The position numbers were made by a program, and so were the translations under genes. From the IMG/VR virus record IMGVR_UViG_2718218131_000010, positions 1 to 18,400 of that record: a stretch of DNA of 18,400 nucleotides; one strand, given 5' to 3'. Positions 1,746-18,400 of this stretch are shown piece after piece (position 1 is the first letter of the stretch; the number at the start of each line of letters is the position of its first letter). The notes below the pieces were generated by a model. That model saw nothing but the letters and a program-made list of their open reading frames with translations. It had not been told where the DNA came from and made no database searches. This DNA comes from a virus (lineage: Duplodnaviria > Heunggongvirae > Uroviricota > Caudoviricetes).

Positions 1746-1763
1746 TTTTTGTGGAGGCAACCA

Positions 1764-2563: not shown

Positions 2564-2985
2564 GCAAGATTGACTATCAGGTACTGCGTGAGGCAGCAGT
2601 AGCAATTGAAACAGTAGCAACGCCTCAAAAATTGCTGGCATTTCGTATGAAAGTCACACCTCAGGTTGTGCTGGCACTACTGGATGAACGGGAAGCAGAC
2701 AAAAAGCGCATTGCAGAACTGGAAGCTCGGGAAATAAAACCAGCCAAAGGTGAAGTTCTTGTCGTTGTTTCTGGTTTTACTGGTTGCGGAAAAAGCGCCA
2801 TTGCCGGGGAAATAGAAATCGCGATGAAGGCTATTGGTGTACCGGTTCAGTGGACTAATGGCGATGCAGAAAAGCGCATGACTGGCGCTGACTGGCTGAC
2901 TGCGATTGAGATGTACAAACCAACTGTGCGCATCGTGGAAGTTAATGTGCCCCGCGCCGCAGGCATTCGCATCAAAGGAGAGTGA
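2560..2985 (+). CDS. hypothetical protein (141 aa) with Walker-A-like GFTGCGKS motif
   Basis: GTG start in the conserved GGAGGCAACCAGTGAG junction; motif VVVSGFTGCGKSA fits G-x4-GKS, but the protein is short for an NTPase and no Walker B was seen. Confidence 0.5.
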   Translation: MSKIDYQVLREAAVAIETVATPQKLLAFRMKVTPQVVLALLDEREADKKRIAELEAREIKPAKGEVLVVVSGFTGCGKSAIAGEIEIAMKAIGVPVQWTNGDAEKRMTGADWLTAIEMYKPTVRIVEVNVPRAAGIRIKGE

Positions 2986-2986
2986 T

Positions 2987-3502
2987 ATGGCGTTAACACA
3001 CCACGAACTCTGTCAGATTGCGTACAAGTTCCTTAAGCGCAACGGGTTCAAGGTTTGTTTTCATGACCGCTTTATAGCTGTAACCAGTACCGGAGAACAG
3101 CCAGATGCTATGGGATTCAGAAATTCAGCATCATGCCTGATAGAGGCGAAGTGTTCTCGTGCTGACTTGTTAGCAGATAGAAAAAAGCGTTTTCGTAAAA
3201 ATCCGTCTCTTGGAATGGGCGACTGGCGATTCTTTATTAGTGAGCCGGGAATTATTTCAATTGAGGATTTACCACCTGGCTGGGGGTTACTTCACGTTGT
3301 TAACGGAAGAGTACGGAAAGTACATGGGTGGCCCAAGGGTAATTGCTGTTGGGGTAATCCTGACGATAAGCCATTTACTGGAAATAAGCAGGTTGAATGC
3401 GATTACATGTTATCTGCATTAAGGCGCATGGAGTTGAGAGGGCACCTTAATGAAATATATGACGGTGTAATTGTTAATAAGAAAGAAGGAAACGCGGCAT
3501 GA
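2987..3502 (+). CDS. PD-(D/E)xK nuclease-fold protein (MmcB-like?), 171 aa
   Basis: ATG 2987 with AAAGGAGAG RBS; motif ...GEQPDAMGF...CLIEAKCSRADLL fits a D...(D/E)xK restriction-endonuclease-like core. Family call is tentative. Confidence 0.45.
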   Translation: MALTHHELCQIAYKFLKRNGFKVCFHDRFIAVTSTGEQPDAMGFRNSASCLIEAKCSRADLLADRKKRFRKNPSLGMGDWRFFISEPGIISIEDLPPGWGLLHVVNGRVRKVHGWPKGNCCWGNPDDKPFTGNKQVECDYMLSALRRMELRGHLNEIYDGVIVNKKEGNAA

Positions 3503-4485
3503 TCACTATTACCAAAGAGCGACTACTGACAATCAAGCAGTGGCGCGAAACATACGGACCTGGTAGCAACGTTGTACTGCCAGCAGAAGAAGCGGAAGAA
3601 CTGGCGCGGATTGCACTGGCATCACTGGAAGCAGATCCAGTTGCTTATATTTTCAAACATCCGGCCGGGAAATTATTCTGGGCTTTAACGGATGAAAGCA
3701 ATAAAGAGCAAGCTGACGTTATTCCTGTTTATGCTGCCGCGCCTGCGTCGGTTGTGCCGGATAATGCATCAGAGCCTCTTGCTTATGCTTACAAAGAGCT
3801 TACGCCTGAGATTATGCGCAACCATTTAGCTGTATTCGAGCGATATGGAATAGCCCCAAACGATAGCTCTACCACAATTCAGGCACTGCGAATCGCGCTG
3901 GATGGCATAGAGCGGAGCGGCGCCATGCTTCATGGTGCCGAACCTGTAAGCCAAACTTACAAGTTGCTAGTTAATACACCTTGCCAAGATGCGCCAGCCC
4001 ATATCTGGCTGCAAACAGCTGGAGTATGGCCAGAAGATGGCGAGTTAAGCGAATTAACGTGGTGCAGCCACAATCAGCACCATGATGACACGCTATATGT
4101 TCGAGCTGACCTTGTGAATGGCAACTATCCGGATATTCCGGATAGTTCGGTGCCAGGGCCAGGAAAGGGCGTCACCGGTGAACGTATCCGCATTAAACCG
4201 CATGTTTATCGCGAACTGGTTAACCGTCTCCACGATACAGCGATCAAGTGTGCGGGCACCCAGCAATTACGAGAAAGAATTAGCCGTGTTTTGGGCGACG
4301 TTATTACGCCAGATCATCATAAACAAGCCGAGAAAAGTGGCTTGGAAAGGTGTCACCTTGAGGCGGCATTAAACATTAAGCCGGGGCATACGCTTGGCAT
4401 TATTGATGCACTATTGGTTCATAAGATGGCCAGGGCTTTATTGCCGCTGGTGGATGCTGGCGATACAAGCGAGGGTGAAGTATGA
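3499..4485 (+). CDS. hypothetical protein (328 aa)
   Basis: ORF track; ATGA overlap with upstream stop; AAGAAGGAAACG RBS. Confidence 0.6.
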   Translation: MITITKERLLTIKQWRETYGPGSNVVLPAEEAEELARIALASLEADPVAYIFKHPAGKLFWALTDESNKEQADVIPVYAAAPASVVPDNASEPLAYAYKELTPEIMRNHLAVFERYGIAPNDSSTTIQALRIALDGIERSGAMLHGAEPVSQTYKLLVNTPCQDAPAHIWLQTAGVWPEDGELSELTWCSHNQHHDDTLYVRADLVNGNYPDIPDSSVPGPGKGVTGERIRIKPHVYRELVNRLHDTAIKCAGTQQLRERISRVLGDVITPDHHKQAEKSGLERCHLEAALNIKPGHTLGIIDALLVHKMARALLPLVDAGDTSEGEV

Positions 4486-4844
4486 GAGTTGCAGATCACA
4501 TCAAACACCTTGAAAGAATTATCGAAAACGGTGAACTCTTAAGAGATCAGATGAGACGCACGGCAGAAGTCAGAGAGGCGATAATCCGCAGTCAGGCTGG
4601 TAAATTAAAGCAATTGTCAGAGATTAACGCGCTATACAAGAACAGACGTAACCGGGCGGCGCTGCGGCTTCAGAAAGCACGTAATGAAATTAAATTGGTG
4701 GAGGCAAAACTGAAAAAACAGATTCAGCGTTACGATCAGCAAGATGCTTTTTATGCCGCCATCAAGGCGGCTGCTAATGAAATAGGCATCTGGAAGTTGC
4801 TGGTGGAGAAAGCAAAGACGAAGTTAAATGCCAACGAAAGCTGA
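4482..4844 (+). CDS. hypothetical coiled-coil protein (120 aa)
   Basis: ORF track; ATGA overlap with upstream gene; K/R/E-rich heptad-like composition. Confidence 0.55.
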   Translation: MRVADHIKHLERIIENGELLRDQMRRTAEVREAIIRSQAGKLKQLSEINALYKNRRNRAALRLQKARNEIKLVEAKLKKQIQRYDQQDAFYAAIKAAANEIGIWKLLVEKAKTKLNANES

Positions 4845-4918
4845 ACTACAGGTACCCACCAGCACATACAGAAAATGATTGTTTCCACATCAAGGAGATT
4901 TTAATGTTTCACTGAACA

Positions 4919-5056
4919 TTAAGTAAGCCAGTGCATAATTCCATTTTTTACTGACCTTAAAAGCAAAATCAAAACGATGATGAGGATGATCGCCAGAATC
5001 TGGCTAATAACAGGCGCATCTAAAAATGCACTCAGGAACTGAAAAAAAGCAGTCAT
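4919..5056 (-). CDS. candidate 45-aa hydrophobic single-TM peptide (MTAFFQFLSAFLDAPVISQILAIILIIVLILLLRSVKNGIMHWLT)
   Basis: Hand-translated minus-strand ORF below the 60-aa track cutoff; ATG at 5056-5054 with AGGA 9 nt upstream; one strongly hydrophobic helix followed by basic residues; stop at 4921-4919. Confidence 0.3.
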   Translation of the reverse strand: MTAFFQFLSAFLDAPVISQILAIILIIVLILLLRSVKNGIMHWLT

Positions 5057-5097
5057 TAAGGTGGTTCCTTGTCAAATGTAAAGGAGCACTTGCTCAC

Positions 5098-5126
5098 GTT
5101 GACGTAGAAACCCAACCCCTATATAG
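5098..5126 (+). promoter_or_regulatory. near-consensus sigma70 promoter (TTGACG-17 bp-TATAGT)
   Basis: -35 TTGACG 5098-5103, 17-bp spacer, -10 TATAGT 5121-5126; divergent from the small peptide gene; may drive hot via a long leader or a small RNA/ORF (5155-5352). Confidence 0.4.
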
Positions 5127-5505
5127 TTGGATTCGGTGAAAGAAAGTCGTTAACGTGAGCTTACGGCACATGTTTTCGGAACAACATCAGGGAACGGCTA
5201 ATTCCTTGATGCGGATGGGGTCTGTAATGCAGACCCTATCTATTAACGTCATGATTGCATCTCAAATTTTCTCCTTATCTTCATTAATCAAAATTCATTT
5301 CATTTGTGAAACATCACAATATTTAGAAAATGGCCCTCTTGCAAGTGCATAACTTTGTGGATAAATCAGGAAGAAAAAAGTTGATTCTGCGCACGGCAAG
5401 GCAGATAAGCTGTGCACAAAAATCAATGGGAGAAGAAAAAAAATTAAAAGTTACTTTGCTGGTTAAATAATAGTCGTTACTCAATTATTCTGGATGGGAT
5501 TTGAT

Positions 5506-5757
5506 ATGCACGATTGGAATATTGCAGCTAAAAGTCAGGAAGAACGGGATAAGGTTAACGTTGATCTGGCTGCCAGCGGTGTGGCGTACAAAGAGCGATT
5601 GAACATACCTGTCATAGCTGAACAGGTAGCCCGCGAGCAACCAGAGAATCTGCGCACCTATTTCATGGAACGGCTACGGCACTACCGGCAGTTAAGCCTC
5701 CAGTTGCCAAAAGGGAGCGATCCGGCATATCAGAAAGATGATGCCGTAAAGAAATAG
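5506..5757 (+). CDS. hot: Hot, homolog of DNA polymerase III theta subunit (HolE)
   Basis: [43 protein letters not shown] closely parallels E. coli HolE ([43 protein letters not shown]). Start at 5506 preferred (GGGA SD); in-frame alternative ATG at 5494. Confidence 0.85.
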
Positions 5758-5763
5758 CGGTAG

Positions 5764-6336
5764 TTAACCGTTTTGAACTTCTCGTATCCTGGCAATGACA
5801 GCTTCATGTTGGGCTTGGATAGCGGCTTTTTCGTTTTCAAGTCGGGCAATAGACATCTCTAATTCTTTGCTGTACCAGGCGAGTTGGGCCAGGTTCATCC
5901 GGTTGTGGTCGAGAGTTGGAGACACTTCGACGCGATCCCTTTCTTCCTGTTTTAATGAGAAGAGATTCATCTCATCCCTTGAGGAAAATTCAGCAACAAT
6001 TTCTTGTTGATGATCCGGTCGCTGCGGCATCCTCGCCAGTATAAATGGCGGTTCTTTTGAAAACATGAATGTCGGTTCAGAACGTGTTTTCACCCATCTA
6101 GCCTGCTGTCTTTCGGCAAGTTCACAGGCTTCATCATAGTTATTTGCCAAACCAAGCACGGATGGACGGTCCCACGCGCCACCATTCAGACAATAAACAA
6201 CAATTTTCCCGTCATGTTCTGTAACCCCATAGGGATGGTCCCACCAGGCGTCCAGCTGAGCTTTAGAGCGTTTCTCGTTAGGAGTGCAGTCAAAATTTTT
6301 GGGCAATACAGGATCGAGAGGAATGCGATTAGGCAT
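5764..6336 (-). CDS. hypothetical protein (190 aa), divergent from humD; position matches P1 lxr
   Basis: ORF track; lies between hot and humD as in the P1 gene order hot-lxr-humD (recalled, not verified by sequence). Confidence 0.55.
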   Translation of the reverse strand: MPNRIPLDPVLPKNFDCTPNEKRSKAQLDAWWDHPYGVTEHDGKIVVYCLNGGAWDRPSVLGLANNYDEACELAERQQARWVKTRSEPTFMFSKEPPFILARMPQRPDHQQEIVAEFSSRDEMNLFSLKQEERDRVEVSPTLDHNRMNLAQLAWYSKELEMSIARLENEKAAIQAQHEAVIARIREVQNG

Positions 6337-6471
6337 AGCTAATTCCTTATTAACTGATTGGCAACGAGGTTACGCTGATCCGTTGGTGATGAATAGTAGC
6401 AAAGAGCACAAAATCATCAGCGGTGGTTGATGTACGTAACGCGTTTGCACCAAAGGTGTCCCTTTAATGTA

Positions 6472-6491
6472 TACTGTATAAATGAACAGTA
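6472..6491. promoter_or_regulatory. LexA (SOS) box TACTGTATAAATGAACAGTA
   Basis: Matches the CTGT-N8-ACAG consensus exactly; 20 bp upstream of humD ATG; overlaps a TATAAA/TATACT -10 candidate with TTGCAC as a possible -35 at 6445-6450. Confidence 0.85.
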
Positions 6492-6510
6492 TTATTGAGG
6501 TGAAAACGCT

Positions 6511-6900
6511 ATGGGCTTCCCTTCTCCTGCGGCGGATTATGTTGAAAGCAGAATTTCTCTTGATCAGCAACTAATCAGGCATCCATCAGCGACCTACTTC
6601 ATGCGGGCGGCAGACAGCCATCACCGTGAGGGAATATTGCAGGGTGCTTTGCTGGTGGTTGATTCCTCGCTTACTCCGGTTGATGGTTCGCTGCTTGTCT
6701 GCGCTATGGAGGGTGAATATCGCATAAAGAGATACCGAAAGTATCCGCGCCAGCACCTGGAGGATTTAAGCACCGGGAAGAAAGAGGCGTTACCAGTAGA
6801 TGACGATGGTTACACGGGTAGTAATGCCGTGTTTGGTGTGATCACTCATGTCATCAATGATGCCCGGAGTGGGGAGTTTGATGATTGTCCGGTCATTTAA
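6511..6900 (+). CDS. humD: HumD, UmuD' homolog (translesion synthesis accessory)
   Basis: 129 aa; UmuD-like peptidase S24 C-terminal region (LLVCAMEGEYRIKRY...VFGVITHVIN); LexA box immediately upstream. Confidence 0.9.
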   Translation: MGFPSPAADYVESRISLDQQLIRHPSATYFMRAADSHHREGILQGALLVVDSSLTPVDGSLLVCAMEGEYRIKRYRKYPRQHLEDLSTGKKEALPVDDDGYTGSNAVFGVITHVINDARSGEFDDCPVI

Positions 6901-6972
6901 GCTGCAAAGTGCTGGTGCTTTATGCCTGTGAAGTTTATAATTGTGTACACATAACGAGTACACGAGGTGTTT

Positions 6973-7194
6973 ATGCAATCCATTAACTTCCGTACCGCGC
7001 GCGGCAACCTTTCTGAAGTGCTCAACAATGTTGAAGCCGGGGAAGAGGTTGAAATCACCCGCAGAGGCCGTGAGCCAGCAGTAATTGTCAGCAAGGCTAC
7101 TTTTGAAGCCTACAAAAAAGCGGCGCTGGATGCTGAATTTGCATCCCTGTTTGACACCCTGGACTCCACCAACAAGGAACTGGTTAACCGATAA
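6973..7194 (+). CDS. phd: Phd antitoxin (prevent host death)
   Basis: [49 protein letters not shown]... matches P1 Phd; TAATG overlap with doc. Confidence 0.95.
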
Positions 7195-7574
7195 TGAGGC
7201 ATATATCACCGGAAGAACTTATTGCGCTTCATGATGCGAATATAAACCGCTACGGCGGCTTGCCGGGAATGTCAGATCCGGGTAGGGCAGAGGCCATTAT
7301 CGGGAGAGTTCAGGCCAGAGTTGCCTACGAAGAGATCACCGACCTTTTCGAAGTCTCCGCCACCTACCTGGTGGCTACAGCGAGAGGGCATATATTCAAT
7401 GATGCCAATAAGCGTACCGCGCTAAACAGTGCGCTGTTATTTCTACGCCGTAACGGGGTGCAGGTATTTGATTCACCTGAACTGGCAGACCTTACTGTAG
7501 GCGCTGCGACTGGCGAGATATCTGTATCTTCTGTCGCCGACACGTTACGTAGATTGTATGGTTCTGCGGAGTAG
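7194..7574 (+). CDS. doc: Doc toxin (death on curing, Fic-fold kinase)
   Basis: 126 aa [22 protein letters not shown]...[11 protein letters not shown]... matches P1 Doc; 1-nt overlap with the phd stop. Confidence 0.95.
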
Positions 7575-7578
7575 ATTA

Positions 7579-7758
7579 ATGGCACGCAAATACAACAAAT
7601 TGTCCCGTGAAGCGTTAAAGATGCTTCTTGATGGCGTGAGTCGCCGCAAGGTAAAGCAATACCTGGTTGGTAAGCAAATTGGTGCCAGGACCGCTATTGC
7701 TGTGTTATGCCGTCAGGAAATGGTTGTGCTTAAACAGAGAATGCCGGGCAGCAGATAA
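7579..7758 (+). CDS. pdcA: small basic protein downstream of doc (pdcA by synteny)
   Basis: ATG 7579 with GGAG 7 nt upstream (track ORF begins at 7558 inside doc); symbol assigned from P1 gene order only. Confidence 0.5.
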   Translation: MARKYNKLSREALKMLLDGVSRRKVKQYLVGKQIGARTAIAVLCRQEMVVLKQRMPGSR

Positions 7759-7785
7759 AGCCCAATCAGTGATGAAAGGTGTGAT

Positions 7786-8829
7786 GTGAAAGCCGTAATT
7801 ACTCCCTTTGTACAAAAAGTGCTTGGCGTCGCCACATTCAAAGTGGATCAGGAAGTCAGAAAGCTGGTGGAGGCTGGCCGTAAATTTATTATGGAGCCGG
7901 TGCCGCGTGAGTTAATCGAGCACATGGACGACGGCCTCGTTGTTTCCGAGCAAACTATGGCAACAAATGAGGCGTTGCAGCCGTTTTTTAACAGCGATGA
8001 ACTGTTTCGCCGTATTGGTGGAATTGACTCGCTGGTGGCGTGGTTGCGCAGGAAAGAGGGGCAATGCCAGGCCGCAGATCGTAGTTGGTGTGACAACCAT
8101 ATTGTCCACGCTGAACGAGACAATAGCGCGGTGTTGTTGTGCTGGCATCACGATAACCATTACCGGATGCGTGGTTTTAATGAGCTGAAAGAAACGCTGC
8201 ATAATAATCGCGTTAACTGGATACTGGATGTCGCCCGTCAGGAAATGGGGCTTTCAGATGGCCATGATTTAAGTATTCAGGAACTGTGCTGGTGGGCTTT
8301 CATGCGCAACATGATGCACCTGATGCCGGAAGAAGTTTGCCGTATATCAATAAATAAGATGAAAGCCGCAACGCAGGATAGCGGACCTCTGAAAGAGGCG
8401 GATATTCGCCCGTATGACGATCGCGCTACAGCATATGTTCAGATGATGGAAGAACGCGCCGCGCCGATGCGTGCAAAAGTATGCCCTGTGGATGTAGACT
8501 CCGACCCTGGCATGGCGCATTTCAAAATACCAAAACTTCAATCGCTAAAATTGCCCGAGTACATGGACTTTGTGGCTTCCCGTCCATGCTGTGGCTGTGG
8601 AGCTGCGGGAGCTGGCGCTCACATTACGCCTTATATCGTTCGTCATAGTCGATTATGCGCGCATGACATTTATGCTATTCCTCTGTGCCAGTCATGCCAG
8701 CGTGATATTGAGCGTGACCTCGATAATTGGGAGAAGACGCACGGTAGGCTGGCGATGCATCAACGATTGTTCTTTGATTACGCGCTTGGAGTCGGCGCTA
8801 TCACAAGTCACTCGTCGAGCGTTAGATAA
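7786..8829 (+). CDS. pdcB: hypothetical protein 347 aa (pdcB by synteny); C-terminal Cys/His-rich region
   Basis: GTG start 7786 with AAAGG RBS; C-terminus contains [12 protein letters not shown]...C...H...C..C, a possible metal-binding/HNH-like region; symbol from P1 gene order. Confidence 0.6.
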
Positions 8830-8830
8830 A

Positions 8831-8847
8831 ATTGCTCTAATGTATTG
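8831..8847 (+). promoter_or_regulatory. C1 repressor operator-like site upstream of lpa (ATTGCTCTAATGTATTG)
   Basis: 13/17 match to the P1 C1 operator consensus ATTGCTCTAATAAATTT, including the invariant ATTGCTCTAAT core. Confidence 0.6.
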
Positions 8848-8917
8848 CTATTTCTTTAATCGAGGGTATTATATTCCACGTTGATTAGTTGACATGGGCT
8901 AATCAGTAGGTGACAGG

Positions 8918-9370
8918 ATGTTACTTAACTGGCAGGGACGCCACTTCATGGAAATAAATCACTCACGAATAACATCGTACGAGATTGCGGATTACATGAT
9001 CCGCACTAAATCTCTTCTATCAGCGAAAGAACTCGCAGCAATTCTTGAAAAGGAATACCCGCATCTGGATGTCGATAAGCGCGATGTTTATCTGCGCTTA
9101 AAGGCTATCGCTGTGTCTAAGTATTCGTCTGTTTTGATTGATGACAGTACACGCCCACGTAGATTTCAGATCCACTCTCTGAATCCTGAATTCTTTCGCC
9201 GCAGCCGCGCTCCGCGCCGGTTTGATGAAAAACTCCAGAACGAACTCTATATGACGCAGGACGAAAAGGAACGCCGGGAGCACCAGCCTTGGGTAATGGC
9301 GCGTCAACTTTTCAATAAGGTGGCCCGTCAGCACCGTCATTACGGTAATGCCACATCCGCACGTATCTGA
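8918..9370 (+). CDS. lpa: Lpa, late promoter activator
   Basis: 150-aa ORF directly preceded by a C1 operator and followed by pacA, as in P1; AGGTGA RBS before ATG 8918. Confidence 0.75.
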   Translation: MLLNWQGRHFMEINHSRITSYEIADYMIRTKSLLSAKELAAILEKEYPHLDVDKRDVYLRLKAIAVSKYSSVLIDDSTRPRRFQIHSLNPEFFRRSRAPRRFDEKLQNELYMTQDEKERREHQPWVMARQLFNKVARQHRHYGNATSARI

Positions 9371-9380
9371 TTGATTGCTT

Positions 9381-9399
9381 GCCCGTTCCGGGCCTTTTG
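9381..9399 (+). terminator. putative rho-independent terminator after lpa
   Basis: GCCCG-TTC-CGGGC stem-loop followed by CTTTTG. Confidence 0.4.
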
Positions 9400-9455
9400 A
9401 CATGTGACTTTCGTTACCCTCGCGTCAAAAAGAGTTTTTACGAAAGGAAGCATAA

Positions 9456-10649
9456 GTGACCTGGGACGATCACAAGAAGAATTTTGCTCGCCTGGCGCGA
9501 GATGGTGGTTACACCATCGCACAGTATGCCGCCGAGTTTAATCTTAACCCTAATACCGCACGTCGTTATCTCCGTGCCTTCAAAGAAGACACCAGGACTA
9601 CGGACAGCCGCAAGCCAAATAAGCCAGTCAGGAAGCCACTAAAAAGCATGATCATTGATCACTCTAATGATCAACATGCAGGTGATCACATTGCGGCTGA
9701 AATAGCGGAAAAACAAAGAGTTAATGCCGTTGTCAGTGCCGCAGTCGAGAATGTGAAGCGCCAAAATAAGCGCATAAATGATCGTTCAGATGATCATGAC
9801 GTGATCACCCGCGCCCACCGGACCTTACGTGATCGCCTGGAACGCGACACCCTGGATGATGATGGTGAACGCTTTGAATTCGAAGTTGGCGATTACCTGA
9901 TAGATAACGTTGAAGCGCGGAAGGCCGCGCGCGCTATGTTGCGTCGGTCCGGGGCCGATGTTCTGGAAACCACTCTTCTGGAAAAGTCTCTTTCTCATCT
10001 CCTTATGCTGGAGAATGCCAGGGATACGTGTATTCGCCTGGTGCAGGAAATGCGCGATCAGCAAAAAGACGATGATGAAGGTACTCCGCCTGAATACCGT
10101 ATCGCGAGCATGCTAAACAGCTGTTCCGCGCAGATAAGCAGCCTGATCAACACCATTTACAGCATCCGGAATAACTATCGAAAAGAAAGCCGGGAGGCGG
10201 AAAAGCACGCTTTGTCTATGGGGCAAGCTGGCATTGTTAAGCTGGCATACGAACGAAAGCGTGAAAATAACTGGTCAGTGCTGGAAGCAGCTGAATTCAT
10301 CGAGGCGCATGGCGGGAAAGTTCCGCCCCTGATGCTGGAGCAAATCAAAGCCGATCTGCGTGCTCCTAAGACCAATACCGATGATGAGGAAAGGCAGACA
10401 GCCGTCGGCGGCCCTTCTCTTGAAGATCTGGACAAAGTTGCGCGAGAACGGGCCGCCAACCGCCGCGCCGATGCCGCATTGTGGATTGAGCAGCGTAGGG
10501 AAGAAATCGCCGATATCGTTGATACAGGCGGTTATGGAGATGTTGATACTGAAGGTGTATCAAACGACCCATGGCTGGAACAAGACCTGGACGAAGACGA
10601 GGAGGAAGACGAAGAAGTTACCCGCAAGCTATACGGGGATGATGATTAA
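9456..10649 (+). CDS. pacA: PacA, terminase small/pac-recognition subunit
   Basis: 397 aa; contains the pac site internally; acidic C-terminal tail; GTG start with AAGGAAG RBS. Confidence 0.9.
9649..9807. other. pac packaging site: 4 + 3 TGATC(A/G) hexamers with Dam GATC cores
   Basis: TGATCA at 9649, 9656, 9668, 9683 and TGATCG/TGATCA at 9779, 9791, 9802 inside pacA; matches the known bipartite P1 pac architecture. Confidence 0.85.
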
Positions 10650-12133
10650 TGGCCAGAAGTTGCGTAACGGATCCACGTTGGCGCGAGCTGGTGGCGCTAT
10701 ATCGTTATGACTGGATTGCGGCCGCTGATGTTTTGTTTGGGAAGACACCAACCTGGCAGCAGGATGAGATCATTGAGTCCACGCAGCAGGACGGCAGTTG
10801 GACAAGTGTGACCTCCGGCCATGGTACTGGTAAGTCGGATATGACGAGTATCATTGCAATACTCTTCATCATGTTTTTCCCCGGCGCTCGCGTCATTCTG
10901 GTCGCTAACAAAAGACAGCAAGTCCTTGATGGTATTTTCAAATATATAAAGAGCAATTGGGCTACTGCTGTTAGCAGATTCCCGTGGTTGTCGAAGTATT
11001 TCATTCTTACAGAAACGTCTTTTTTTGAGGTGACTGGCAAGGGTGTTTGGACAATATTGATAAAGTCCTGTCGCCCCGGAAATGAGGAGGCGTTGGCTGG
11101 TGAACACGCCGATCATCTCTTGTATATCATCGACGAAGCGTCGGGTGTGAGTGATAAAGCATTCAGTGTGATAACAGGTGCGCTGACCGGTAAGGATAAC
11201 CGTATTCTGCTTCTTTCCCAGCCTACGCGACCTTCAGGCTATTTCTACGATTCACACCACAGACTAGCTATTCGCCCGGGAAATCCTGATGGATTGTTTA
11301 CTGCGATAATACTGAATAGTGAAGAATCTCCGCTTGTAGATGCAAAATTTATACGAGCAAAACTTGCGGAGTATGGCGGTCGTGATAACCCCATGTACAT
11401 GATCAAAGTACGTGGTGAATTTCCCAAATCTCAAGATGGCTTTCTTCTTGGTCGTGATGAGGTTGAGCGGGCGACGCGGCGAAAGGTCAAGATTGCCAAA
11501 GGATGGGGCTGGGTTGCATGTGTTGACGTTGCTGGTGGCACAGGACGAGATAAGTCCGTTATTAATATCATGATGGTGTCCGGCCAGCGAAATAAACGCC
11601 GTGTAATCAACTATCGTATGCTGGAATACACAGACGTTACAGAAACGCAGTTAGCCGCCAAGATTTTCGCAGAATGTAACCCAGAACGGTTCCCGAACAT
11701 AACCATAGCTATTGATGGCGATGGCTTGGGGAAATCGACGGCTGATCTGATGTACGAACGCTATGGTATTACCGTCCAGCGTATCCGCTGGGGTAAAAAG
11801 ATGCACAGCCGTGAAGATAAAAGCCTTTATTTCGATATGCGCGCTTTCGCGAATATTCAGGCGGCAGAAGCTGTAAAATCAGGGCGTATGCGGCTTGATA
11901 AGGGGGCTGCGACTATAGAGGAAGCATCAAAGATACCGGTCGGGATAAATTCCGCAGGTCAATGGAAGGTGATGTCAAAGGAAGATATGAAGAAAAAACT
12001 CAACCTGCACTCACCGGACCATTGGGATACATATTGTTTCGCTATGTTGGCGAACTATGTACCCCAAGATGAAGTGCTTAGCGTCGAAGACGAAGCGCAG
12101 GTTGATGAAGCTCTGGCATGGCTTAATGAGTAA
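10649..12133 (+). CDS. pacB: PacB, terminase large subunit
   Basis: 494 aa; start overlaps the pacA stop (TAATG); position and size as in P1. Confidence 0.9.
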
Positions 12134-12136
12134 AAA

Positions 12137-12153
12137 CTTGCTCTAATAAATTG
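12137..12153 (+). promoter_or_regulatory. C1 operator-like site (CTTGCTCTAATAAATTG)
   Basis: 15/17 match to the C1 operator consensus; sits 4 bp after the pacB stop at the head of the antirepressor module. Confidence 0.65.
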
Positions 12154-12154
12154 T

Positions 12155-12310
12155 GTTTTTTTGGCTGCCGATGTTACATTGAACCTGAACTCTTGCGCCT
12201 TGAGGCATTTTCGGTTTATGCTTATCAGGCACCTCATTAAAACGGGTGCCGGGATTGGAACCCCGGATAATGCAAAAGGCGACACAGACGCCAAAAGCGT
12301 CTTTTTTTGT
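12155..12310 (+). ncRNA. candidate C1-controlled small RNA or leader segment ending at an intrinsic terminator
   Basis: No ORF; contains GGCUGCC (12164-12170) and a hairpin CCGGG-AUUGGAAC-CCCGG (12249-12266); ends with GACGC-CAAAA-GCGTC followed by T7 (12287-12308). Confidence 0.3.
12287..12308 (+). terminator. rho-independent terminator (GACGCCAAAAGCGTC + TTTTTTT)
   Basis: 5-bp GC stem, 5-nt loop, 7 T run; flanked by GACACA / TGTGTC extending the stem. Confidence 0.6.
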
Positions 12311-12339
12311 GTCATGCCATCGCACAGCCATACGTAGCA

Positions 12340-12493
12340 CATAGCTCCGAGATCAATGGTAGTGCTGGCTGGGCTGCCGAAAGGCAGGCCGGTTCCCTTT
12401 TGCGCCGGTAGTTCCAACCCAGTCAGTGCTACCGCCATTGAGATTGGAACCTCACGCGGTAGCTCCTAAAGTTAGCAAAAGGAGGCTGCCATT
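12340..12493 (+). promoter_or_regulatory. structured leader upstream of the icd-like ORF with anti-SD and kissing-loop elements
   Basis: Local hairpin CUGCC-GAAA-GGCAG (12373-12387); hairpin CGGTAG...CTACCG with GUUCCAAC in its loop (12405-12435); second AUUGGAACC (12443-12451); GGCUGCC overlapping the SD GGAGG (12481-12490). Confidence 0.4.
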
Positions 12494-12715
12494 ATGGCTA
12501 CTATCCCTACCCCAACTCACCCTGAATTTATCTGGCGCTTTTACTCCTGCCAGAAACGTCACTATCACTTCGTTATCGCAACAACAGAAGATGAGGCCCG
12601 CTCTCAGCTTCCTGACGCCCCATGTATTTTCTCTGCCCGTTTTTCCACTGATTCACGCAATTCTCTCAGTTACTGGTGCCTCCCTGTTAACGCTTCTGCT
12701 CAGGAGGGACTATGA
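12494..12715 (+). CDS. small ORF translationally coupled to the antirepressor (icd-like position)
   Basis: 73 aa; GGAGG 8 nt upstream; stop TGA overlaps the ant ATG (ATGA), the same coupling architecture as icd-ant in P1 immI. Confidence 0.45.
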   Translation: MATIPTPTHPEFIWRFYSCQKRHYHFVIATTEDEARSQLPDAPCIFSARFSTDSRNSLSYWCLPVNASAQEGL

Positions 12716-13824
12716 GAACGTCATTAGTCACCCGTGAAGAGATGATCGAGGCAATTGAACGGCACACTGCCTGTATCAGTACCAGGGATATACCGGGCGT
12801 TATTGCCAACTACTTCATGATCACCAAACAACTTTACCGGAGAAAGGACAAGAACGCGGTTCACCGCATCCTGCTAACCGATATCCGTGAATACCTGCTC
12901 GAACAGGGTCATCTGAATTACGCAACCGTCGCAGCCGAAGCACGCAAGGAGGCACACAGAATGAAAGCAACTAACGTTAAATCAGAAAAAATTCATGCAC
13001 CTTCAGTTCAGGAATCGGAACTGGTGGTTGTTCAGAATCAGCCGGATGAAATTCCCGTTCTGGAATGGCAGGGAGTACGTGTCGTGACAACCGAAACTCT
13101 TGCTAGAGGGTATGGGGTCGATGAAGCCAATATTCGCAACAATTTGTCTCGCAACCTTGACCGCTTTGAAGAAGGTAAGCATTACTTTCTTCTAACTGGT
13201 TTAAAATTAAGAGAATTTAAGAACAGAGTAACCGGAAGTTACTCTGTTGGTAAGAACGCCAGAAGCCTTACACTCTGGACAGAGCGCGGCGCTGCACGCA
13301 TGTCTAAGATCGTGGACACAAATGAAGCATGGGCATTCTTTGAAAAACTGGAAGACAGCTACTTCCGGCAAAAAGAACAGCAACCGGTTGCAATCCCCCA
13401 GACGCTTCCAGAAGCTCTGCGCCTGGCTGCCGAACTGGCTGAACAAAAGCAGCTTCTGGAACAGAAAGCCCACCAGCTAAATCAGCAGCTGGTGGCCGCC
13501 GCTCCTAAAGTCGATTTTGCCGACCGGGTATCAGTAGCTAAAGGGATCCTGATTGGGAATTTTGCAAAGGTTGTTGGACTTAAGCAAAACGCGCTGTTTG
13601 CCTGGTTACGGGAGAACGGCATCCTGATAGCGTCCGGTGGACGTAAAAATGTGCCGTTCCAGCAGTACATCAATGCGGGGTATTTCACGGTGAAAGAAGT
13701 GGTGCTGGATGATGAAGATGGCTACCAGATACGGTTGACGCCTCAATTAACGGGTAAAGGCCAGCAGTGGTTGACGCGTAAACTGCTCGATGCTGGCTTG
13801 TTAAAACCGGTGGCGGCTGAATAA
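12712..13824 (+). CDS. phage antirepressor (Ant-like; ORF6N N-terminal and KilA-C/ANT C-terminal domains)
   Basis: 370 aa; VRVVTTETLARGYGVDEANIRNNLSRNLDRFEEGKHYF...LTLWTERGAARMSKIVDTNEAWAFFEKL (ORF6N-like) and FAKVVGLKQNALFAWLRENGIL...VPFQQYINAGYFTVKE (KilA-C/ANT-like). Confidence 0.75.
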   Translation: MRTSLVTREEMIEAIERHTACISTRDIPGVIANYFMITKQLYRRKDKNAVHRILLTDIREYLLEQGHLNYATVAAEARKEAHRMKATNVKSEKIHAPSVQESELVVVQNQPDEIPVLEWQGVRVVTTETLARGYGVDEANIRNNLSRNLDRFEEGKHYFLLTGLKLREFKNRVTGSYSVGKNARSLTLWTERGAARMSKIVDTNEAWAFFEKLEDSYFRQKEQQPVAIPQTLPEALRLAAELAEQKQLLEQKAHQLNQQLVAAAPKVDFADRVSVAKGILIGNFAKVVGLKQNALFAWLRENGILIASGGRKNVPFQQYINAGYFTVKEVVLDDEDGYQIRLTPQLTGKGQQWLTRKLLDAGLLKPVAAE

Positions 13825-13833
13825 TGGAAGAAT

Positions 13834-13862
13834 GCCCGGTTGATGCCGGGCATAATTTATTG
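13834..13862. terminator. convergent terminator hairpin between ant-like gene and c1
   Basis: GCCCGG-TTGATG-CCGGGC followed by ATAATTTATT; overlaps the c1 stop codon region. Confidence 0.5.
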
Positions 13863-14708
13863 CGCGCTTTCGGGGTTGTCGTTTACTGGCTGCCCCTTCT
13901 TGGTTTTACGGCTGCGCGTAACTGATGCGGCTGACTTAACCTTTTTCTCTTCGCGAGTGATGGCAATTTGTTTTTTTACATTTTCAATATCTGCCAGGCG
14001 ATATATTTTTGCTTGCGGCCAGCGGTCGCAGATGATCGGTTCTATGGAGTCATAAAGGCTAAATTTTGCTTTTTCGAATTCACCGTTGATGATAATTCCA
14101 TCACGGAGAGTTTCATCGCAGATAAACACGCCACACAGTGGCACATGGTAACTAACTGATTTACCATCATTGTAGTTAGGGCTACTGGAAATGTAGTGGA
14201 CGCGCAGCATTGTTTCGCTAAAGCCGTGTACGCGCATACGGAATTTTTCATCCTCCGGGTACTGCTTCATTAGCTCTTTTGTTGCTTCCAGGTTCTCTAT
14301 GTATTTCGCACTGTGCTCATTGATCCCCGCGCTTTTTTGGATGCGAATGTCCTTATCAATCAGATGAATAATGCGGCCAGCGGTCATGTTGACGCTGTTC
14401 ACAGCTTCTGTCTGATAAGTTGTAACCTTACGCACACCGCGAAGGATGTTAGGCACAGGATATAAAATAGTCTTTGGGATATTGAGATCTGGGTACTGTT
14501 CCAGTTCCCGCGCCATTAAAGTCCATTTATCAATTTCTGCCTGAATGCTGTCCGTTTCTTTGAACGGCAGAACGACAACCGGGCGTACAGGACGACCGTC
14601 GCTGGCGGCATCAACGTGTTGGGCGCGTGCAACAGCTTTTTTTAGAAAGAGATCCCTGAAGCTGACGAACTCCTGGTACAGTTGTTCGCCGTAGACATAA
14701 TTTATCAT
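13857..14708 (-). CDS. c1: C1 repressor of lysogeny
   Basis: 283 aa MINYVYGEQLYQEFVSFRDLFLKK... matches P1 C1 as recalled; multiple C1 operators in the vicinity. Confidence 0.95.
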   Translation of the reverse strand: MINYVYGEQLYQEFVSFRDLFLKKAVARAQHVDAASDGRPVRPVVVLPFKETDSIQAEIDKWTLMARELEQYPDLNIPKTILYPVPNILRGVRKVTTYQTEAVNSVNMTAGRIIHLIDKDIRIQKSAGINEHSAKYIENLEATKELMKQYPEDEKFRMRVHGFSETMLRVHYISSSPNYNDGKSVSYHVPLCGVFICDETLRDGIIINGEFEKAKFSLYDSIEPIICDRWPQAKIYRLADIENVKKQIAITREEKKVKSAASVTRSRKTKKGQPVNDNPESAQ

Positions 14709-14802
14709 TGATCCTCCTCCAGAATTGACATGGCCAACAACTCACAGCGGATAACACTGAGAGTTGTTGGGCACCATTATAGAAGGATCTAACGAAAATA
14801 AT

Positions 14803-14819
14803 AGATTTATTAGTGCATT
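14803..14819 (-). promoter_or_regulatory. C1 operator-like site between coi and c1
   Basis: Minus-strand AATGCACTAATAAATCT, 14/17 match to the consensus. Confidence 0.5.
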
Positions 14820-14821
14820 TA

Positions 14822-15028
14822 TTATGAGTCTGGCTGGTTAGTGGTCATGAGATATTCAATTGTGTCAGTGAGATCATCTAGGTCGTCGGGGGTGATACGG
14901 TACTCCTGATTGGATATCTTTGAGTAGTGTTCAGCAATGGCGCGAGCAGCGTCGGTTTCGGTGGGATCTACAGATAAAGCGTTAGAGCAATGTCTAACGT
15001 CGTCGATAGTTGGTGGAATGAAAGCCAT
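14822..15028 (-). CDS. coi: Coi, C1 inactivator
   Basis: 68-aa acidic ORF immediately upstream of c1 on the same strand, as in P1 immC. Confidence 0.8.
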   Translation of the reverse strand: MAFIPPTIDDVRHCSNALSVDPTETDAARAIAEHYSKISNQEYRITPDDLDDLTDTIEYLMTTNQPDS

Positions 15029-15250
15029 AATTATGCCTCACTGTATTTACAACACAGAGCCTGAAGCTCTGACCTACTGTTTCACCCATGATCCATGCTG
15101 GGGTTATCTAACAACATTGCGCTGTGTGTAAGATGAGCAATGCATAGCTGTAATGCCCTGTTTGCTCATTTCCTTCTGAGCCGCTCTACAACACTGAAGA
15201 CACATTAAATAGTGAATCCAAAGTCGTATTACGAAACGGCGGCAAAGCTA

Positions 15251-15267
15251 TAATTTATTAGAGCAAT
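15251..15267 (-). promoter_or_regulatory. C1 operator (Op99-type), minus orientation
   Basis: Reverse complement ATTGCTCTAATAAATTA, 16/17 match. Confidence 0.65.
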
Positions 15268-15333
15268 TGTCAAACAACTATGAAAAACAATCCAGTTTTT
15301 GGCTGGTGGAGTGGGATTTTACTCTCAAAATTT

Positions 15334-15350
15334 ATTGCTCTAATGATTCT
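15334..15350 (+). promoter_or_regulatory. C1 operator-like site (ATTGCTCTAATGATTCT)
   Basis: 14/17 match with intact ATTGCTCTAAT core; lies in the imcA/imcB control region between coi and loxP. Confidence 0.55.
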
Positions 15351-15393
15351 TGATTTTTGTGCGCAGCTGGACGTAAACTCCTCTTCGGACCTA

Positions 15394-15427
15394 ATAACTT
15401 CGTATAGCATACATTATACGAAGTTAT
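15394..15427. other. loxP site-specific recombination site
   Basis: Exact ATAACTTCGTATA-GCATACAT-TATACGAAGTTAT (13-bp inverted repeats and 8-bp spacer). Confidence 0.98.
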
Positions 15428-15446
15428 CTTAAGGGTTATTGAACAT

Positions 15447-15517
15447 GATCAATTTACCTGTAAATCCATACAGTTCAATACATTACAGGTCAAATAGTGA
15501 TCACTTGATCATTTGAT
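15447..15517. promoter_or_regulatory. Dam GATC cluster in the cre leader/promoter region
   Basis: GATC at 15447, 15499, 15507 and 15514 (TGATCA-type) between loxP and cre; cre promoters are known to be Dam-sensitive. Confidence 0.5.
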
Positions 15518-15615
15518 CAAGGTTGCGCTACGTAAAATCTGCGAAATGTTGGCAGTGTTAGTGCTCCAGATTTCGCGTAGCGCACTTAGCACCACCAATC
15601 AATCAGAGGTGAAAA

Positions 15616-15837
15616 ATGGGATATTCAGCTGCTAAAGTGTCCACTCATATTGAGCTTGAGAAAAACCGTGGTTACTGGCGGGCAAAAGGGTTTGATCGTG
15701 ATAGTTGTCAACTGTCATTATCGCGCGGTGAAGAGAAAATAGAACGCACGCGCGGTCGCTGGCGTTTCTATGACGAGAACCATAAACAGGTAAAGGCAGA
15801 GCCGATCCTGTACACTTTACTTAAAACCATTATCTGA
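15616..15837 (+). CDS. candidate small basic protein (73 aa) in the cre leader
   Basis: ATG 15616 with GAGGTG 5 nt upstream; stop 8 nt before the cre ATG; I do not recall an annotated gene here in P1, so this may be non-coding leader. Confidence 0.3.
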   Translation: MGYSAAKVSTHIELEKNRGYWRAKGFDRDSCQLSLSRGEEKIERTRGRWRFYDENHKQVKAEPILYTLLKTII

Positions 15838-15844
15838 GTGTTAA

Positions 15845-16876
15845 ATGTCCAATTTACTGACCGTACACCAAAATTTGCCTGCATTACCGGTCGATGCAAC
15901 GAGTGATGAGGTTCGCAAGAACCTGATGGACATGTTCAGGGATCGCCAGGCGTTTTCTGAGCATACCTGGAAAATGCTTCTGTCCGTTTGCCGGTCGTGG
16001 GCGGCATGGTGCAAGTTGAATAACCGGAAATGGTTTCCCGCAGAACCTGAAGATGTTCGCGATTATCTTCTATATCTTCAGGCGCGCGGTCTGGCAGTAA
16101 AAACTATCCAGCAACATTTGGGCCAGCTAAACATGCTTCATCGTCGGTCCGGGCTGCCACGACCAAGTGACAGCAATGCTGTTTCACTGGTCATGCGGCG
16201 GATCCGAAAAGAAAACGTTGATGCCGGTGAACGTGCAAAACAGGCACTGGCGTTCGAACGCACTGATTTCGACCAGGTTCGTTCACTCATAGAAAATAGC
16301 GATCGCTGCCAGGATATACGTAATCTGGCATTTCTGGGGATTGCTTATAACACCCTGTTACGTATAGCCGAAATTGCCAGGATCAGGGTCAAAGATATCT
16401 CACGTACTGACGGTGGGAGAATGTTAATCCATATTGGCAGAACGAAAACGCTGGTTAGCACCGCAGGTGTAGAGAAGGCACTTAGCCTGGGGGTAACTAA
16501 ACTGGTCGAGCGATGGATTTCTGTCTCTGGTGTAGCTGATGATCCGAATAACTACCTGTTTTGCCGCGTCAGAAAAAATGGTGTTGCCTCGCCATCATCC
16601 ACCAGCCAGCTATCAACTCGCGCCCTGGAAGGGATTTTTGAAGCAACTCACCGATTGATTTACGGAGCTAAGGATGACTCTGGCCAGAGGTACCTGGCCT
16701 GGTCTGGACACAGTGCCCGTGTCGGAGCCGCGCGAGATATGGCCCGCGCCGGAGTTTCAATACCGGAGATCATGCAAGCTGGTGGCTGGACCAACGTAAA
16801 TATTGTCATGAACTATATCCGTAACCTGGATAGTGAAACAGGGGCAATGGTGCGCCTGCTGGAAGATGGCGATTAG
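15845..16876 (+). CDS. cre: Cre tyrosine recombinase
   Basis: 343 aa MSNLLTVHQNLPALPVDATSDEVRKNLMDMFRDRQAFSEHTWKMLLSVCRSWAAWCKLNNRKWFPAEPEDVRDYLLYLQARGLAVKTIQQHL... matches Cre; begins 418 bp after loxP. Confidence 0.98.
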   Translation: MSNLLTVHQNLPALPVDATSDEVRKNLMDMFRDRQAFSEHTWKMLLSVCRSWAAWCKLNNRKWFPAEPEDVRDYLLYLQARGLAVKTIQQHLGQLNMLHRRSGLPRPSDSNAVSLVMRRIRKENVDAGERAKQALAFERTDFDQVRSLIENSDRCQDIRNLAFLGIAYNTLLRIAEIARIRVKDISRTDGGRMLIHIGRTKTLVSTAGVEKALSLGVTKLVERWISVSGVADDPNNYLFCRVRKNGVASPSSTSQLSTRALEGIFEATHRLIYGAKDDSGQRYLAWSGHSARVGAARDMARAGVSIPEIMQAGGWTNVNIVMNYIRNLDSETGAMVRLLEDGD

Positions 16877-16893
16877 CCATTAACGCGTAAATG

Positions 16894-16910
16894 ATTGCTC
16901 TAATTCTTTG
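16894..16910 (+). promoter_or_regulatory. C1 operator-like site upstream of cra (ATTGCTCTAATTCTTTG)
   Basis: 13/17 match with intact ATTGCTCTAAT core; position corresponds to P1 Op2. Confidence 0.55.
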
Positions 16911-16926
16911 ATATTTATGGCGACAT

Positions 16927-17214
16927 ATGAGAAAGAATTTCAACATCGACGGAAAATATGTAGTGCTGTCAGTGAGCACTAATATTCAGTCGCCAGCCGT
17001 CATTGTCACTGTAAAGCTGAGCGATAGAATGCCTGATATTGACTCAATATCCGTTGCGTTCCCTGTCAGAAGTATGCGTAGTGCTGAACATTTCGTGATG
17101 AATGCCACCGAGGAAGAAGGGGGCACCTCAGAAAACGGAATCTATGGTCACTCCCGTTTTTGCAACACCGATTTTGACGACAAGTTGGCTTGCTTGAATC
17201 TATCCGGCGTCTGA
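16927..17214 (+). CDS. cra: Cra (C1 repressor-controlled function), by position
   Basis: 95-aa ORF immediately downstream of cre and a C1 operator, as in P1; weak RBS, so the start is uncertain. Confidence 0.6.
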   Translation: MRKNFNIDGKYVVLSVSTNIQSPAVIVTVKLSDRMPDIDSISVAFPVRSMRSAEHFVMNATEEEGGTSENGIYGHSRFCNTDFDDKLACLNLSGV

Positions 17215-17395
17215 ATGGGATTTTATTCCCGCGCCTTGATGAGTTCCGCGCCTGATGAACCTCCAGAAAATATACGGCTTCAATGAGCCTTTCCGTTTTA
17301 CAGGTTCCTCAACAGGCCGGTGGGCCGTTAGTATCATCAATATCAGTATTCGCAAAACCAGATCAGTAATTCTTTAAACCGGTGTATTTCTGCCG
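17215..17395 (-). ncRNA. candidate noncoding 3' flank of the IS110-family element (possible bridge/guide RNA region)
   Basis: 180 bp with no ORF between cra and the transposase stop; contains tandem CCGCGCCT(T)GATGA repeats (17229-17258); which IS end carries the bridge RNA depends on subgroup, which I cannot determine. Confidence 0.25.
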
Positions 17396-18400
17396 TTATG
17401 CTACATAAGTTTGCTGTCGTGCCGTTAGGGCCCAGGCTATTCTGGCCAGCTTGTTTGCCAGAGCACAAGTGACGACAAAGTTGCTTTTCCGGCACAGTAA
17501 ATCCCTGACCCAATCGGCCAATTTGCCAGACTGGTGTTCCAGTTTTTGTATGAATACCCTGGCACACTGAACCAACAAAGTTCGGATCTTTTTATTACCT
17601 CGCTTACTAATTCCCAGCAATGTCGTCCTACCTCCCGTGCTGTACTGCCGAGGTACAAGCCCTGTTGCCGCCGCAAAGTCACGGCTGCTGGCGTACTGCT
17701 TCCCGTCGCCAATCTCAGTTGAAATAGTACTCGCTGTCAGTGTTCCGACGCAGGGAATGCTCAGCAAGCGCTGTCCAACCTCATCTTCGTCCAACTTTCG
17801 TTTCAACTGGGATTCCAGATCTTTAATCTGCTCAACAAGATAGTGATAATGCTGTTGTAATTTCAGCAATAACTGGCTGAGGTAAAGAGGCAAACTATTA
17901 TCCTCAAGAATGGTACTCAGTCGGCTAATAACGGCAGCTCCTCGGGGAACGCTAATGCCAAATTCCAGCAGAAAAGCATGCATTTGATTGGTTGTTTTCA
18001 CCTTATCCTGAACCAGGGATTCACGGACACGATGCAGAGCCCGCATTGCCTGCTGAGATTCCGTTCTGGGCTGCACAAAACGCATAGACGGACGCGATGC
18101 AGCTTCACAAATAGCTTCGGCGTCGACAAAGTCGTTTTTATTGCTTTTAACGAACGGGCGGACAAATTGTGGTGATATCAGCTTTGGGGAATGCCCCAAC
18201 TCTTCCAACTTGCGTGCCATAAAGTGAGAACCGCCACAGGCTTCCATTGCGATGGTTGTAGCGGGGCATGTCGCCAAAAATTCGATCAACTTTGGCCGGG
18301 TAAATTTTTTACGGTAAACAGCCTTCCCGCGACGATCCTGGCAATGAATATGGAAAGAGTTTTTACCCAGATCGATACCAATGAGCGCAATGTTTTCCAT
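17396..18400 (-). CDS. IS110-family (DEDD) transposase/recombinase, 334 aa; start codon at the window edge
   Basis: N-terminal MENIALIGIDLGKNSFH (RuvC-like fold with IGID motif) and a C-terminal region typical of the IS110 family; resembles IS4321/IS5075-type enzymes from memory. Confidence 0.9.
   Translation of the reverse strand: MENIALIGIDLGKNSFHIHCQDRRGKAVYRKKFTRPKLIEFLATCPATTIAMEACGGSHFMARKLEELGHSPKLISPQFVRPFVKSNKNDFVDAEAICEAASRPSMRFVQPRTESQQAMRALHRVRESLVQDKVKTTNQMHAFLLEFGISVPRGAAVISRLSTILEDNSLPLYLSQLLLKLQQHYHYLVEQIKDLESQLKRKLDEDEVGQRLLSIPCVGTLTASTISTEIGDGKQYASSRDFAAATGLVPRQYSTGGRTTLLGISKRGNKKIRTLLVQCARVFIQKLEHQSGKLADWVRDLLCRKSNFVVTCALANKLARIAWALTARQQTYVA

Follow-up and report, generated by a model that had tools for sequence, protein, structure and literature searches.

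What occupies the interval between the terminase subunit gene pacB and the repressor gene c1 in some P1-like phage-plasmids, and is it the immunity locus immI of P1 in another place or an additional one? The question is raised by a viral sequence from IMG/VR (IMGVR_UViG_2718218131_000010, positions 1 to 18,400; this whole stretch of 18,400 nucleotides (nt) is referred to below as the window), whose gene order lpa, pacA, pacB, c1, coi, cre is that of a P1-like phage-plasmid segment, and in which a cassette at 12134-13856 (plus strand) separates pacB from c1. Our analysis indicates that the cassette is probably a second, functionally independent immunity module of the immI type, placed between the stop codons of pacB and c1. 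As judged from the sequence, its anatomy is that of P1 immI, part for part. The initial annotation of this DNA had listed a C1 operator, a structured leader, a small coupled open reading frame (ORF) and a 370-amino-acid protein of the ORF6N/KilA-C type, and all these elements are present where it had placed them.

Alignment with P1 delimits the cassette. Homology is lost exactly at the stop codon of pacB (10649-12133, plus strand; identified as an ORF, by alignment with P1, and by the annotated pacB of the phage-plasmids JL22 and RCS47) and is back about 15 nt before the stop codon of c1 (13857-14708, minus strand; 610.9 bits with the NCBIfam equivalog phage_rep_C1, NF041318), at approximately 13842, and thus 12134-13856 substitutes for the P1 spacer. 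The cassette located at the same site in JL22, RCS47 and vB_EcoM-673R5 (hereafter 673R5) supports these borders. The ends of pacB and c1 in the P1 reference, at 93206 and 93231, are separated by a spacer of 24 nt, and immI (Oc4, c4, icd, ant1/2) is located at 48140-49731. The cassette is not found between pacB and c1 of P1, and the map of P1 given in the initial annotation is correct.

The regulatory RNAs of the cassette belong to described families. The leader RNA (12229-12309, plus strand) matches the isrK family of Rfam (RF01394) at 12229-12307, over model positions 1-77, with 62.4 bits (the gathering score is 50), and this assignment agrees with its fold and with an intrinsic terminator at 12286-12302 followed by a T-run. 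The loop of the leader hairpin contains the decoy target a1 (TTGGAAC, 12255-12261), and the element b1 (GCAAAAGG) occupies 12272-12279. The gene of a C4-type antisense RNA follows at 12352-12439 on the same strand (RF01695, 76.7 bits with the gathering score of 45). This stretch adopts the family structure (-46.4 kcal/mol, z = -5.46), with the element b' (CCTTTTGC, 12396-12403) in a hairpin loop and the element a' (GTTCCAA, 12411-12417) in a single-stranded joint. The mRNA target region, recognized by its complementarity to the C4 loops, is at 12444-12482 (plus strand) and comprises a2 (TTGGAAC, 12444-12450) and b2 (GCAAAAGG, 12475-12482), the latter overlapping the Shine-Dalgarno sequence AAGGAGG of icd. 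The complementarity is exact, a' pairing with both a1 and a2 over 7 nt, and b' with both b1 and b2 over 8 nt. Hence, as in immI, the leader contains a C4 RNA gene whose loop elements are complementary both to a1/b1 and to a2/b2.

Several ORFs overlie this region. Those of the leader on the plus strand (12161-12337, 12246-12344 and 12307-12411) have no Pfam or NCBIfam match where tested, and we treat them as non-coding. In pSLK172-1 and many other plasmids, RefSeq/PGAP reports a coding sequence for a 37-amino-acid "ash family protein" at the place corresponding to 12356-12469 (plus strand); as the C4 RNA gene lies beneath it, this protein family probably results from reading an RNA gene as a coding sequence. 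In the satellite phage P4, the old "put. ash gene" likewise overlies a region distantly similar to the C4 stretch. Moreover, the 3' strand of the outer stem of C4, GCTACCGC (12427-12434), has its complement in GCGGTAGC (12456-12463), located 3' of a2, and by eye both strands vary jointly in related sequences (for example, GGTGGTGAG with CTCACCACC), which suggests an alternative pairing in the unprocessed transcript.

The pairings were followed through 119 IMG/VR loci with the same leader, reduced to 74 distinct sequences. Pairing is kept in 99.8-100% of cells for the C4 stems, where 17 of 27 pairs show compensatory changes, and in 99.8% for a1:a', where five of seven pairs do. For the loop elements and their targets, a register-free count of Watson-Crick runs replaced the count of pairs in fixed columns: cognate runs are 7-10 nt long in most sequences, compared to the mean of 3-4 nt for non-cognate ones. 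The specificity is diverse, with 15 a types, 29 b types and 36 a/b combinations among the 74 sequences. Four specificity types are seen at the pacB-c1 site, and the three sites of each always change together: TTGGAAC/GCAAAAGG in the window, TTGAGAC/GCAAAAGG in JL22, TTGAGAC/GTCAAAGG in RCS47 and TTGGCCT/GTCTAAGG in 673R5.

The element pairs of the cassette are unrelated to those of the canonical locus. The C4 RNA of P1 has a' CTGTCAA and b' TCACTAAC. In the plasmid pSLK172-1 (NZ_CP017632.1), with 100% identity to the window across the 3 kb compared, the canonical C4 RNA carries CTGCTAA as a' and CGTAAGTG as b'. Predicted cognate loop-target duplexes are at -23.7 to -24.5 kcal/mol, those between the cassette and canonical modules at -9.5 to -15.5 kcal/mol. 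Since the a/b specificities are wholly different and the cross-duplexes weak, the two switches should be blind to each other. One cross-match involves GTTAGCA (12470-12476), beside b2, which is complementary over 7 nt to the canonical a' (CTGCTAA) of the same plasmid; its predicted duplex has just -15.5 kcal/mol, and the match is probably due to chance, though weak cross-talk could result from it. The specificity of canonical immI reassorts too: pSLK172-1 (approximately 12000-12240 of locus L011) combines a P7-type a (TTAGCAG) with a b of the type of D6 locus 1 (ACTTACG), and in canonical immI of JL22 (locus L009) the a site is of the P1 type and the b site of the P7 type.

Transcription of the cassette would be controlled as in immI. 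The C1 operator-like site CTTGCTCTAATAAATTG (12137-12153, plus strand) matches the P1 C1 operator consensus in 15 of 17 positions and aligns with Oc4 (Op51) of P1 and P7; a consensus scan of the whole window yields six C1 operator matches with at most three mismatches, compared to 0.07 expected by chance. The operator is conserved in all 23 P1-context copies of the cassette present in the alignment, and the commonest non-P1 variants have no counterpart of it at the aligned position. A putative C1-controlled promoter (-35 TTGTGT, 12151-12156; -10 TACATT, 12175-12180; plus strand) overlaps the predicted operator, as P2c4 (P51a) does in P1, with offsets from the operator start (+14/+38) equal to those of the annotated P2c4. 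A putative operator-independent promoter (-35 TTGCGC, -10 TATGCT, 12193-12222, plus strand), resembling P1c4 (P51b) of P1, has offsets of +56/+80 (+55/+78 for P1c4) and a predicted start at about 12229. The homology to the window of D6 locus 2, a related module with no operator, begins at this promoter. Both promoters are putative, since they are placed solely by positional homology to the annotated promoters of P1.

The proteins encoded downstream are homologues of Icd and Ant. The icd homologue (12494-12715, plus strand; 73 amino acids) matches NCBIfam NF033153 (phage_ICD_like) and PHROG 1426 and is 80% identical to Icd of P1; its end overlaps the start of ant by ATGA, that is, icd and ant have the arrangement of translationally coupled genes known from immI. 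The ant1-like gene (12712-13824, plus strand; 370 amino acids) encodes a protein that aligns along its entire length with PHROG 63 (anti-repressor Ant; E 7e-136). The profile search that the initial annotation had called for finds both expected domains, Pfam ORF6N (PF10543) at residues 116-200 (E 2.5e-18, 66.6 bits with the gathering score of 27.8) and ANT/KilAC (PF03374) at residues 258-359 (E 1.5e-31, 109.3 bits with the gathering score of 25.3). The protein is 57% identical to P1 Ant1 overall, the N-terminal 100 residues or so being clearly similar and the C-terminal 145 or so nearly identical. Moreover, a putative in-frame internal start, an ATG preceded by AAGGAGG, would yield an Ant2-like product of 287 amino acids (12961-13824, plus strand). 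Its context, AAGGAGGCACACAGAATGA, matches that of the P1 ant2 start, AAGGAGGCACATAGAATGA, and recurs unchanged in 20 of 20 P1-context copies of the cassette.

If these parts act as their counterparts in P1 do, the following sequence of events may be proposed. In a lysogen, C1 bound at 12137-12153 would shut the overlapping promoter, as expected from the site itself and from its homology to Oc4/P2c4, while the weaker downstream promoter would go on supplying the leader and C4 transcript. Many of these transcripts would end at the leader terminator, producing an IsrK-like short RNA with a1 and b1, whose structure is evident and whose expression is presumed. Transcripts reading through would be processed into C4 RNA, and the pairing of a'/b' with a2/b2, for which complementarity and co-variation are observed, would mask the ribosome-binding site of icd and so presumably repress it. 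As icd and ant overlap by ATGA, the block of icd would, by analogy with P1, extend to both the Ant1-like and the Ant2-like products. Icd and Ant would be made once control by C1 fails, or upon entry of the DNA into a cell lacking a matching C4 RNA, and Ant, if similar in action to P1 Ant1/Ant2, would antagonise the C1 repressor and push the phage toward lytic growth.

The initial annotation had left it open whether the cassette is a second or a relocated immI. Our observations show it to be a second one. pSLK172-1 also carries the canonical icd-ant-kilA-repL locus with its own C4, approximately 50 kb from the cassette, the canonical c4-icd-ant locus is retained besides the cassette in JL22, RCS47 and 673R5, and all 13 sampled full-length plasmid matches have a second matching place in the same record. 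That the cassette is the only immI of its genome, moved from the kilA-repL neighbourhood, would be compatible with the homology of its parts to immI, which is all that speaks for it; it is refuted for the matching replicon pSLK172-1 by the coexisting canonical locus, the presence of both loci in JL22, RCS47 and 673R5 also speaks against it, and we assign it practically no weight. Scarcely more credible is a decaying, functionless remnant of recombination. The cassette is indeed a mosaic, its leader being 93% identical to D6 locus 2, the 3' end of ant 86% identical to P1 ant, and the middle of ant unrelated to either. Still, all its ORFs are intact, its copies retain both the coupling and the internal start, co-variation links the three RNA sites, and the cassette is widespread at 88-100% identity.

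The explanation that deserves most attention besides a second immI accepts the regulatory part as described, and assigns Ant another target than P1 C1. The variable ORF6N domain would then be directed against the repressors of other resident prophages (cross-induction), or against DNA or a host factor, as in proteins of the Roi/KilA kind. The middle of Ant, which contains ORF6N, bears no relation to that of P1 Ant1. In its hot-spot of variation (residues 135-195 or so; approximately 13110-13300 in the window) cassette copies are 59-100% identical, compared to a per-column conservation of 95-100% in the N- and C-terminal parts. For one copy (locus L043) the middle is 68% identical to the window according to the extracted ORF, on which we relied, and 100% according to tblastn. 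This variation is unlinked to the C4 type, and since C1 is nearly invariant across the related loci (97-100%), it does not track variation of C1 either; a hypervariable middle unrelated to that of P1 Ant1 means that the target of Ant may not be C1. Outside P1-like phages, the middle domain is most closely related to antirepressor-type proteins of Shiga toxin (Stx) and other phages (42-56% identity). JL22 annotates the cassette ant gene as Roi, and P1 KilA shares the same C-terminal domain (60% identity), yet is annotated as a host-killing function. Against another target, the near identity of the C-terminal domain to P1 Ant1/Ant2, the retained Ant1-specific N-terminus and ant2 start, and the operator, which puts the gene within the C1 regulon, all point to C1, and we consider a different target rather unlikely.

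The divergence and variability of the Ant middle thus weigh against a second, independently functioning immI, and so do several further observations. All its functions (transcription, processing, C1 binding and Ant activity) are predicted from sequence. A simple consensus promoter scan of the window called neither of the two proposed promoters, and the search for solved structures returned only ribosomal protein L9, with weak matches, and none for close relatives. In the fixed columns of the MAFFT alignment, b1:b' is paired in 51.5% of cells and a':a2 in 78%; we attribute these low counts to register shifts of the alignment, an explanation supported by the register-free count. Finally, in a few sequences the loop-target pairing is achieved only via G-U wobbles. 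A second immI-type module nevertheless remains the reading that we consider probable.

The position relative to c1 is less peculiar than initially described. The ant gene does converge on c1, though this is not special, since pacB already converges on c1 in P1, and the statement that transcription runs head-on into the 3' end of c1 was too strong, as a stable G+C-rich hairpin (13832-13853, no strand assigned; -18 kcal/mol, z = -3.15), probably a bidirectional terminator, separates the stop codons of ant and c1. The repressor itself is an ordinary P1 C1, being identical to P1 C1.100 in 282 of 283 residues. The sole difference is at residue 193 (window region 14132), C in P1 C1.100, which is annotated as thermosensitive, and G here. 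As for the replicon, pSLK172-1 is a conjugative 369-kb IncHI2A/IncN/IncY cointegrate of E. coli, so the P1-like element is fused into a large conjugative cointegrate there and is not a stand-alone phage-plasmid of approximately 95 kb.

The cassette is already on record and ordinary, being found in about one third of P1-like plasmids, and the novelty initially ascribed to it was overstated. It occupies the same site in JL22 (97% identity), RCS47 (NC_042128; 94%) and 673R5 (88%), as well as in the plasmid pTZ20_1P. The full pacB-cassette-c1 arrangement is present in 259 of the 797 matching PLSDB records, the cassette in 242 of 5426 complete E. coli genomes, and pacB and/or c1 flanks in 24 of the 119 IMG/VR loci with this leader. 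P7 lacks any match to the leader and icd of the cassette and to the 5' half of its ant. The pacB genes of cassette-bearing loci form two main allele groups (approximately 88-89% and 95-100% protein identity to the window), hence the cassette either moved between backbones or predates their split. The RCS47 record annotates an ant gene at the pacB-c1 site, and Venturini 2019 (PMC6906374) locates ant and two small ORFs between pacB and c1. In the records inspected, including those of JL22, RCS47 and 673R5, the proteins are annotated, but neither RNAs of the C4 or isrK type nor the operator. The cassette receives no comment in the JL22 paper (PMC9603915), and our literature search returned no paper in which the module is presented as an orthogonal second immI. 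Our analysis adds the complete anatomy of the module, its predicted orthogonality to canonical immI, and a connection with the isrK locus of Salmonella Gifsy-1.

In Gifsy-1 (NC_010392.1, locus L131; 34131-34329, minus strand), a full C4-family match (69 bits) comes after the isrK RNA and before anrP, and the isrK stretch matches Rfam c4-a1b1 as well. As in the window, a terminated leader of the isrK family precedes a C4-family RNA and an antirepressor gene; in Gifsy-1, b2 covers the Shine-Dalgarno sequence of that gene. The Gifsy-1 locus differs in having neither icd nor a C1 operator, and its antirepressor induces a Q-type antiterminator. The C4 match is located exactly at "orf45" of Hershko-Shalev 2016 (PMC4825925), where this stretch is read as coding. 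The same study shows that mutating and restoring the pairs G28:C162 and G31:C159 controls translation of the downstream antirepressor, and by our own count of coordinates these pairs of the published helix b-I are a1:a', so that a homologous locus lends experimental support to the mechanism proposed for the cassette. Short RNAs of the IsrK type may accordingly serve as a1/b1 decoys for C4, the leader in the window being of the same design; the switching on of antirepressor translation in trans by the short terminated IsrK RNA has been shown only for Gifsy-1. C4, P1 and RNase P go unmentioned in PMC4825925, as do c4-a1b1 and isrK in the main text of Weinberg 2017. That the Gifsy-1 locus shares the architecture of the cassette, with a C4 RNA under "orf45", may be a new side observation.

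The presence of two immunity "keys" in one phage would change which relatives it resists and which it can induce. P1-like phage-plasmids frequently carry resistance genes in E. coli and Salmonella, and whether two of them coexist in a cell, or one superinfects or induces the other, depends on their immunity groups. For a large share of the family these groups are probably redefined by a second switch that has an antisense specificity of its own, and the a/b types provide a simple sequence read-out for predicting them. Taken together, the observations allow a broader proposal, which we regard as tentative and as somewhat more likely to fail than to hold: about one third of P1-like phage-plasmids would have two C4/Ant switches, each blind to the other, under a single C1, and the IsrK family would be the terminated a1/b1 leader, a decoy for C4. 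If this is true, immunity is a combinatorial two-key code with freely reassorting a and b types, of which the 36 combinations are those seen so far, and this code sets which relatives coexist with, exclude or induce one another. The histories of IsrK in Gifsy-1 and of C4 in P1 would merge, "orf45" having been laid over a C4 RNA gene. A literature search found no paper stating either the two-key code or the unification of IsrK with C4.

Among other known systems, the CI RNA of satellite phage P4 has a distant similarity to the C4 stretch (69% over approximately 150 nt). The P4 CI RNA is an RNA immunity factor processed from a leader transcript, as C4 is; it terminates transcription of its own operon and is not known to act on an icd-ant message, nor is an antirepressor known to be involved. 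Another such system is locus 2 of D6 (NC_050154, approximately 74.0-75.5 kb), which encodes icd and a Rha-type Ant. Its leader, C4 and icd start are 93% identical to those of the window, with both an isrK and a C4 match, and D6, too, bears two icd-ant modules. Its differences are the lack of a C1 operator, an Ant of the Rha/helix-turn-helix type and not of the ORF6N-KilAC type, and another genomic neighbourhood. The cassettes of RCS47, JL22, 673R5 and pTZ20_1P have the site and gene order of the window, the a/b specificity being different in JL22, RCS47 and 673R5.

A further close parallel is immI of P1 and P7 itself. The order of parts, the operator and both promoter spacings are the same, the C4 RNAs belong to the same Rfam family, and the logic of a1/b1, a'/b' and a2/b2 is shared, as are a highly similar Icd, the N-terminus of Ant, the ant2 start and the C-terminal domain. 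The cassette differs from these loci in its site, as immI of P1 and P7 lies between sim and kilA; in its leader, which matches isrK and not c4-a1b1 (RF03163), the family matched by the canonical loci; in its a/b sequences, which are unrelated to those of both P1 and P7; and in the middle of Ant, where P1 Ant1 has no Pfam match in place of ORF6N. Moreover, it occurs in addition to the canonical locus. Thus, all features of immI that can be followed in sequence are found in the cassette, except the leader type and the position next to sim and kilA-repL, and these two describe the canonical locus rather than the mechanism.

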